From the IMG/VR virus record IMGVR_UViG_3300045125_000155: DNA of 43,105 nucleotides. One strand, written 5' to 3'. The DNA comes from a virus. How positions within the stretch are numbered: position 1 is the first letter of the stretch; each line of letters opens with the position of its first letter. The translations under genes and the position numbers were made by a program. Positions 7,401-8,515 of the stretch are shown in pieces. Under the pieces are notes generated by a model. It saw only the letters and a program-made list of their open reading frames with translations, did not search any database and was not told the origin of the DNA.

Positions 7401-7616
7401 GCTGATAGTTTCGCCATCTGCATCAATAATGATATTGATATTCTTGGCAAAGCCAGCCATGGCTTCGTCAATTGAATTGTCTAAAATTTCCCAAACAAGG
7501 TGATGTAGACCTTTCTTATCAGTATCACCTACGTACATGGCTGGCCGCCAGCGAACGCCCTCCAAACCCTTGAGAACTTTAATCAAATTTCCGTTATAAC
7601 TGTTTGGCTCACTCAT
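4464..7616 (-). CDS. gyrB: DNA gyrase subunit B with intein (several frameshifts)
   Basis: [63 protein letters not shown], (C)[25 protein letters not shown]. Confidence 0.95.
4880..6100 (-). mobile_element. 407-aa intein with HNH homing endonuclease in the GyrB TOPRIM domain
   Basis: [11 protein letters not shown] (block A), KCTLDHKF (block B), VHRIVW...[17 protein letters not shown] (HNH), [28 protein letters not shown] (blocks F/G, +1 Cys). Confidence 0.93.
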
Positions 7617-8409
7617 TTTAATAAACCTTTGCTTTTGAGATAATCTTCAAATTTTTGCTCATCATAAAACTTATTCTTCTTCATATTAACAGCCTTGTCT
7701 AATGGCTGCAAATTGTCAAGAGCACAAATAATTTTAGGATCTTTTATGCCATAGTCCAAAAATGCCTTAATTGGATATACATGATCTATGTGATATGCGG
7801 TTTTGTCTTGTAATTTATTCCAATTAGGATGATTGAATATGTGTTGTCTAAGGTCTTTCCAATCATACCCAAGTATATTATATATTTCTTCACTTGCTTT
7901 TTTGTTTCGACCAGAAACTGCTGCTCGTAAATTATTTCGCCAAGCCCGCCAGATTTTCCCATTTTGCGCAACAAATTCTCTATCAGGATTCCAATTTGGG
8001 TTATTCGCTCCGCTATTTTCGATTGCTGCGCATTTGGCGCATCCATGTCCGCAGTCCTTGAATTTTGTAAGATTTGTCTTGTAGAGATGCCCTCTCGGAC
8101 ATAGTGCTTCAAATATTTGTCTACCATGCGAATGATGATCGGTTAATAAAGTGTATCCCCTAGAAGAAAACACATCTCGTATTTTCTCGATCGGCGTTAA
8201 TTTTTGCGCTCTTCGTCTTTGATGATAACATTCAATGCATCGTCTTCCGCTATGAAAATCAGCATATGTGATTTCTTTTGATGACCGCTCGGGCAAATGT
8301 ACTTGAGCTTTTGTTTGCCATTTATGTACGTAGTCGAAATGAGAGTGCAATTTGCTTCTTCAAAATCTTTTTTTACTTCTTCGTATGTTTTTCTTGTTGT
8401 TTTTCCCAT
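7613..8409 (-). CDS. Free-standing HNH endonuclease with two zinc-binding repeats (frameshift near 8280)
   Basis: Two CPxGH...CxxC repeats, GANNPNW linker, C-terminal YHIDHVYPI...ALDNLQPL...N; stop overlaps the gyrB ATG (ATGA). Confidence 0.85.
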
Positions 8410-8422
8410 ATCTGTTAATCGA

Positions 8423-8515
8423 TCAAATTTCTTTTATATAATAAGCTGGCCTATGCCTCACGGCGGCGAGACCTTTGAGCACTTGAATTTTAGAGCCATC
8501 ATAACTCTGTGTCAT
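8423..8515 (-). pseudogene. gyrB: Orphan gyrB 5' fragment (30 aa)
   Basis: MTQSYDGSKIQVLKGLAAVRHRPAYYIKEI* aligns with GyrB start [28 protein letters not shown]; its ATG overlaps the upstream gene's TGA. Confidence 0.85.

Follow-up and report, generated by a model that had tools for sequence, protein, structure and literature searches.

A predicted HNH nuclease gene between two gyrB starts of a phage, a probable intron-free homing element

Known homing elements that carry an end of their host gene

Homing without splicing, in which a nuclease gene travels together with a version of one end of its host gene, is a mechanism already known from fungi. First of all, the WHO elements at FBA1 of yeast are non-splicing homing elements with their own version of one host-gene end; the displaced end is kept as a fragment, the fragments begin at one position, allele-specific cleavage has been shown, and the fragment has been proposed to act as a homology arm (available part of PMC7282813). 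In mitochondria, mobile ORFs that supply a foreign C-terminus occur at atp6 of Allomyces and at atp6, atp9, cox2 and nad3 of Glomus; they consist of an endonuclease and a diverged copy of the gene end, and the displaced native end nearly matches an empty relative, whereas the incoming end is far less similar (PMC3630166, in the part available). For Tremella fuciformis, 'introns with N-terminal duplication' have been described, several of which were proved to be unspliced; here a duplicated, diverged part of the host gene arrives with the mobile insert and exchanges a fragment of the gene (accessible portion of PMC7315562). Moreover, partial gene duplications beside free nucleases are mentioned in the available parts of PMC7487136 and PMC6279837.

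In phages of the T4 type, intronless homing and split genes are represented by the Seg and Mob nucleases, with mobA in topoisomerase and mobE in nrdA (available parts of PMC2988022 and bioRxiv 10.1101/2022.08.31.505936). They resemble the case below in being free-standing HNH nucleases with flanking co-conversion and with topoisomerase as a target (same parts of both sources), and in that an essential gene is entered without an intron, but they cut hundreds or thousands of bases away, or divide the gene, whose two polypeptide products then reassemble (PMC2988022, same part). New 5′ ends are known from integrative elements, i.e., IMEVchUSA3 at dusA and SXT at prfC, where insertion takes place in the first codons of a conserved gene and a diverged N-terminus restores the frame; these elements are integrase-mediated, excisable and large, and involve no nuclease-driven homing (available part of PMC8409611). 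A stub-and-replacement case is not described in the available parts of PMC10448857, PMC13565253 and bioRxiv 10.1101/2022.08.31.505936; the phage nucleases in the available text of PMC2988022 cleave at a distance or split genes, and the string 'duplicat' does not occur in it. In the literature searched, mostly openly accessible main texts, no published phage case of the layout was found.

The locus reported here lies in a 43,105-nucleotide stretch of viral DNA (IMG/VR record IMGVR_UViG_3300045125_000155, hereafter the window), in which a predicted HNH nuclease gene stands between a stranded gyrB start, or stub, and a divergent second gyrB start. Judging from sequence comparison, this is with good probability an intron-free homing element, which would cut the gyrB of related phages close to the RxRP codons and insert a copy of itself through recombination. 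By analogy, it appears to work like a WHO element but is no member of that class, since nuclease, target and replaced end are other ones. As in the WHO class, a nuclease lies between a complete gene and an end fragment, both in the window and in two further carriers, L002 (IMGVR_UViG_3300033121_001334) and L103 (JACCDG010640813.1), and the fragment is derived from the recipient and has a fixed end, as seen in the comparison of L103 with the empty relative L098 and in the same break in all three carriers. Resistance by allelic difference, a feature of WHO elements (PMC7282813, part available), is proposed for the gyrB element. The differences are that the 5′ end is replaced instead of the 3′ end, that the host gene is phage gyrB instead of yeast FBA1, that the WHO nuclease is a LAGLIDADG intein-zinc-finger fusion whereas those of the gyrB elements are predicted to be CapR/HNH-like, HNH_3 and NUMOD4-HNH, and that tandem clusters, a WHO feature, were not seen for the gyrB element (available part of PMC7282813). 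Because the 5′ end and not the 3′ end is replaced, the gyrB element must also supply a start codon and a ribosome-binding site.

The mitochondrial mobile ORFs differ in concerning the 3′ end, in their LAGLIDADG or GIY-YIG nucleases, in belonging to an organelle genome and in being sometimes in frame with the host gene (PMC3630166, part available), and the Tremella inserts in belonging to fungal mitochondria, in being described as introns and in having no mapped nuclease target (accessible portion of PMC7315562). Unlike T4 mobA and mobE, the gyrB element causes no split: the downstream gyrB starts at codon 1 and is whole, with a redundant stub remaining beside it. What this locus contributes is the junction mapped by a 99.6% identical pair, the CapR/HNH-like family and two further lineages.

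Layout of the locus and its nuclease

On the minus strand, the order of features is an upstream ORF, the stub ORF, 13 nt, the nuclease-like gene, gyrB and gyrA. The arrangement claimed in the first-pass annotation, that is, an orphan GyrB start, a nuclease, a second start and ATGA overlaps, is indeed present from 8515 to 7616, and the overlaps lie at 8515-8512 (upstream ORF/stub) and 7616-7613 (nuclease/gyrB). The upstream gene (8512..9067, minus strand), which runs through its ATGA overlap onto the stub start, is read as two frameshifted ORFs and carries AAAGGA in its 3′ end, 9 nt ahead of the stub ATG. The label 'ATE-like' formerly given to it found no match to a Pfam or PHROG family; among the relative loci compared, it has no close homologue.

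The stub ORF (8423..8515, minus strand), recognised by tblastn to the gyrB start, comprises 30 codons, of which 1-23 (8515-8447) encode the original N-terminus of GyrB as far as the proline of RHRP and the remaining ones read into the insert. Its sole non-self tblastn match in the window below E 0.8 is the gyrB start at E 1.4e-7, the next best being at E 0.82, and over 56 nt the two starts are 59% identical; the claim that they match in protein and diverge in DNA holds. No second stub cassette is found elsewhere in the window. The break had been placed after RPA; the motif is the same one, but by comparison with relatives it falls at the Pro codon, and the following Ala may be part of the insert.

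From the Pro codon to the nuclease ATG extends a 37-nt spacer (8410..8446, minus strand), the left end of the mobile unit. It is followed by the gene of a predicted endonuclease of about 265 aa (7613..8409, minus strand), which contains one frameshift near 8277 and measures 797 nt against 798 in L002. Inside the last nuclease codons lies AAAGG (7626..7630, minus strand), probably the ribosome-binding site of the replacement start; it stands 9 nt ahead of the gyrB ATG, and the same AAAGG is found in L002 and L103. The replacement gyrB 5′ end, codons 1-25 (7542..7616, minus strand), was delimited by sequence comparison and has K, G and W at the positions where stub-type alleles have Q, A and H. 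The gyrB gene itself, encoding the B subunit of a type IIA topoisomerase (4464..7616, minus strand, gyrA next), shows the Pfam domains HATPase_c, DNA_gyraseB, Toprim, Intein_splicing and DNA_gyraseB_C. Its earlier description as a full gyrB fits the relative L002, where it is a single gene of 643 aa, but in the window it is broken into 7 frameshifted ORF pieces, and gyrA into 2.

The frameshifts of the window are likely sequencing errors; single-base indels break up genes at many places, which makes ORF lists drawn from this assembly unreliable. One RNA run contained 7% of the sequence words and gave 4 short contigs, none of which falls on the insert. A window so rich in indels might lead one to regard the whole layout as an artefact of assembly, or as a local tandem duplication that has since decayed. 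However, the two starts are just 59% identical, and this explanation is refuted by the recurrence of the layout, with intact genes, in the independent assemblies L002 and L103; it retains hardly any probability.

It was also considered whether a self-splicing intron or a ribosomal bypass joins the stub, as exon 1, to the gyrB body. Nucleases inside phage genes are often intron-borne (available part of PMC10448857) and the topoisomerase of T4 has a bypass cassette (bioRxiv 10.1101/2022.08.31.505936, part available), whereas Rfam gave no intron match in the window at the gathering threshold, none in 7000-9200 at E <= 1, and none in four stub-bearing loci, where only two weak sRNA matches appeared. 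That is to say, the catalytic core that surrounds the ORF of group I intron homing endonucleases was not matched here. Splicing is unlikely because, besides this Rfam result, the insert has only 37 nt of non-coding DNA; the second start, moreover, is complete with its own ATG. The probability left to an intron or bypass is very small, and the reading as an intron-free homing element is kept.

The nuclease homologue search yielded 25 proteins at E <= 0.001, 21 of which were aligned. Homologues P0004 and P0007-P0019 are 54-82% identical to P0006, the intact L002 nuclease. D209, H210, N233 and N242 (a C-terminal D-H...N...N arrangement) and two Cys pairs are invariant in the 21, and the predicted architecture of the window nuclease is two CapR-like Cys repeats followed by a C-terminal His-Me-finger (HNH-like) domain. 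CapR (PF21817) was detected in 13 of the 21 homologues at E <= 0.1 (best 5e-8), with the L103 copy above the curated cut-off; HNH_4 (2 of 21) and GmrSD_C (3 of 21) appeared below the Pfam cut-off, and Pfam found neither LAGLIDADG nor an intein domain in the nuclease. The truncated ORF of the window has endonuclease matches in PHROG and no Pfam match. An AlphaFold model (pLDDT 82, pTM 0.43) gave no match in Foldseek, and a sequence search of the PDB returned nothing useful. In a wide VIA search with the C-terminal part, the best match was the GVE2 HNH structure 5h0o, weak at Z 4.3 (rmsd 4.4, 80 aligned), followed by similarly weak matches at Z 2.4-3.1 to Gme HNH, Cas9 HNH, retron HNH, EndoI, GmrSD and PtuB; the ESM Atlas added, as a lead only, one cluster of HNH proteins at 0.90 besides viral clusters without a name. 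Taken together, these individually weak scores from sequence and model make an HNH nuclease likely.

Beside the more distant homologues, GyrB motifs were matched in none of 59 further viral loci (best-segment identity 28-59%), none of 54 additional loci from metagenomes and none of 11 from GTDB; a GyrB start fused to a nuclease homologue was found in 0 of 170. By eye, the approximately 35% identical family members L105, L114, L036 and L159 adjoin other apparent genes, which read as those of DNA polymerase III alpha, a primase-like protein and a major capsid protein.

The Toprim domain of the window gyrB also contains an intein at about 6100-4880 (minus strand), with an HNH_3-type domain and not LAGLIDADG. 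Since this HNH-bearing intein is not present in the 643-aa gyrB of L002, the window gyrB holds two selfish nuclease genes. The window most likely belongs to a jumbo phage, as IMG/VR contigs of 370 and 494 kb are among its closest relatives. Elsewhere in it, two tRNA genes lie at 13760-13832 and 15012-15086 (minus strand), near a TilS-like PP-loop gene and genes for dCMP deaminase, PRPP synthetase and a sigma factor, and two related small-protein pairs are present at 27540-27797/30891-31265 and 26682-27116/32260-32538 (BLASTP E 1.5e-11 and 1.7e-7).

Carriers, empty relatives and the proposed route of homing

The intact nucleases of L002 and L103 are 75-77% identical to that of the window. In all three carriers, the stub ends at the RHRP proline and the spacer is 37 nt long, with 23-29 of the 37 nt identical in pairwise comparison; the stubs and the upstream genes differ among the three. 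The second start of L103 is KVFKGLSAVRHRPSMY, which retains AVRHRP, and the window and L002 have another form (GVRWRP), so that G and W are common to these two. The pattern GVRWRP[AG]MY matched 1 stretch in IMG/VR, the carrier L002. Near the break, where the carrier alleles have unusual residues, the sole change common to the three replacement starts is Gln to Lys. The Tyr and Ile of the GyrB N-terminal arm, which matter for dimerisation and ATP binding, are present in all second starts.

A search with the stub motif returned 8 stretches, i.e., 6 intact gyrB genes, the L002 stub and one non-GyrB match (L097, dropped because it has no GyrB motif at the matched place). The nuclease-less relatives amount to 5 distinct ones on 6 contigs (L003/L004, L005, L095, L098, L099). 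It had been predicted that relatives lacking the HNH gene would have an orphan-type gyrB start, and this is what was seen: all 5 begin with [EQ]AVRHRPAMY, without a stub and without a nuclease upstream, and a downstream-type start or a duplicated fragment occurred in none of the 5. No close nuclease homologue was found in the records of these relatives, one of the five records being near complete, and for the lineage of the window itself no empty allele turned up.

The left junction is placed by L103 and the empty L098, which are 99.6% identical over 279 nt, covering the end of the upstream gene and all of the stub, until they part within the Pro codon. Since near-identity ends there, the stub is the recipient's own start; the same pair bears out the claimed insertion near the RPAMY codons. 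Over 56 nt, the three stubs are 71, 80 and 100% identical to their best empty allele and 59, 64 and 59% to their own second start. From the facts that the stubs differ, share their end codon, keep the motif and include one that matches an intact allele at all 56 nt compared, it follows that the stub has been renewed from the recipient. It is thus likely, on these comparisons, to be a left homology arm and not a dead relic.

In the course of homing, the following steps are conceived. In a co-infected cell, the nuclease would nick or cut an empty gyrB allele near the junction; during repair, the donor stub would serve as the left homology arm and the donor gyrB body as the right one, and the first codons of the recipient would become the new stub. 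The donor start would then restore a whole gyrB without splicing, its ribosome-binding site lying inside the end of the nuclease gene. This start would be resistant because it differs at the target, amino-acid changes included, and the stub would be safe from cutting as the site is broken at the junction.

As for the right-hand side, identity between second starts and empty alleles is 60-67% in the first 75 columns, with the exception of L002 against L004 (75%), and the second starts of L002 and the window are 76% identical there; four of the empty alleles are 76-81% identical among themselves. Beyond these columns, the carriers are no closer to one another than to the empty relatives. The gyrB bodies of the window and L002 are not specially related, in a tree mostly without resolution (0 of 6 inner branches starred). 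The gyrB of L103 is 76% identical to that of L098 over 1093 nt, with no return to near-identity, and 82% to that of L099; because it stays diverged from L098, the right junction is far away or variable, or L098 is itself a mosaic. The fixed core thus appears to be the spacer, the nuclease and about 25 gyrB codons, as the G and W common to the window and L002 show most clearly, and the copied tract can run more than 1 kb into gyrB, with a varying right-hand extent. The formerly proposed mobile unit, the HNH gene plus a new 5′ end, consequently stands as a minimum, but not as the full extent, given that the L103 gyrB is about 76% identical to an empty relative for at least 1.1 kb.

The long donor tract in L103 can be read in another way, namely that a free-standing nuclease lay upstream of gyrB and that the stub is the scar of a one-off illegitimate crossover, passively inherited and without a role in spread. 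In L104, a 52% nuclease homologue stands directly before, and overlaps the start of, a gyrB whose motif is unusual, and a significant stub is not found; an RP-Y-S-YIG-like stretch upstream of the nuclease reaches only E 0.6-0.8 and was not counted as a stub. Among the 25 homologues of the first search, 2 have an overlapping GyrB start at the protein tail, one being that of L104, known from DNA, and the other P0016, whose tail fits at 5 of 5 positions (0 of 300 shuffles); a single 4/5 match among 145 distant homologues was left out of the count. Such a scar would be expected to leave related, decaying stubs, whereas the three stubs are unlike one another, break off at one and the same codon and retain the motif. 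As the explanation of the stub it is therefore improbable, though not negligible, but a free-standing nuclease upstream of gyrB is plausible as the origin of the homing element, and L104 and P0016 may represent this ancestral state. By eye, a long inverted repeat lies at L104:2950-3000, just ahead of the start of the nuclease homologue.

The spacer hairpin bears on a further view, compatible with homing, that the stub persists chiefly because, as a translated leader, it controls nuclease expression by coupling or by a hairpin. The L103 spacer folds well (z -2.8), whereas folding is weak in L002 (z -1.4) and absent in the window (z +1.3). The stub does occupy the position and start of gyrB, and its frame stops 13 nt short of the nuclease ATG in the window and crosses it in L002 and L103, but the end of this frame is not conserved. 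Hairpin control of free-standing phage nucleases has been described (PMC2988022, in the part available). Promoter-like sites occur here at chance level (9 against 7.2 ± 2.8). A leader as the main reason for keeping the stub is quite unlikely, and the role of a renewed homology arm is preferred.

If the homing explanation is true, a phage homing nuclease can reside inside an essential gene without intron, intein or split protein, and short unannotated ORFs before nuclease genes are predicted to mark the target site, so that target and resistant alleles would be readable from the genome and directly testable. The first codons of phage gyrB, and sometimes far more, would then travel with the nuclease and distort gyrB trees, and nuclease-linked gyrB starts may account for odd residues in conserved motifs.

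Further lineages and frequency of the layout

A pattern for GyrB starts without continuation into M-Y matched 3 stretches, namely L002, L170 and L171. The last two are copies of one phage and contain an RKRP-ending stub, a 310-aa ORF without a Pfam match, an HNH_3 nuclease and a full gyrB whose start motif is rewritten to EFPENVRCRAAMY. L201 has its upstream gene in common with L170/L171 and possesses an intact stub-type start. With a general GyrB-start pattern, 49 viral matches were obtained, of which 4 are stubs, 1 is a chance match (L193, dropped as a stub locus) and 44 are intact or cut by the end of the locus.

In L180 (IMGVR_UViG_3300045988_174488, reverse strand, 2577-5231), the stub is about 100 codons long and is followed by a NUMOD4-HNH_3 gene and a full gyrB. 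The stub ends at TTLHA and the full gyrB reads TTLNAGGKF; the His/Asn position was left free in the search patterns, and His stands at this break motif in 40 of the 41 distinct strings among the loci compared, Asn occurring only in the second copy of L180. L180 is an independent case at a second site.

The stub-and-replacement layout is uncommon overall. A stub was seen in 0 of 72 loci with at least 1.2 kb upstream (mostly T4-type genes, among 120 of about 590 topoisomerase stretches), and none of the 88 INPHARED records with a GyrB start has it at two places. On balance, we lean moderately towards the broader view that an unpublished class of intron-free homing elements exists in phages, a 5′ mirror of the WHO elements of yeast, assembled independently with nucleases of at least three HNH types. 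Such elements would target the most conserved gyrB codons, with the stranded start as a self-renewing landing pad, and would impose residue changes on ATPase motifs that are almost invariant in an essential enzyme.

Two minor observations concern further gyrB loci. L186/L194, grouped with L170/L171, have an RKRP stub, a 310-aa ORF, an HNH_3 gene and a heavily rewritten gyrB start. In L032:2522-5815, the gyrB of a 320-kb phage, there is an intein-like insertion in the N-terminal ATPase domain, after the E-I-C-D-N motif.
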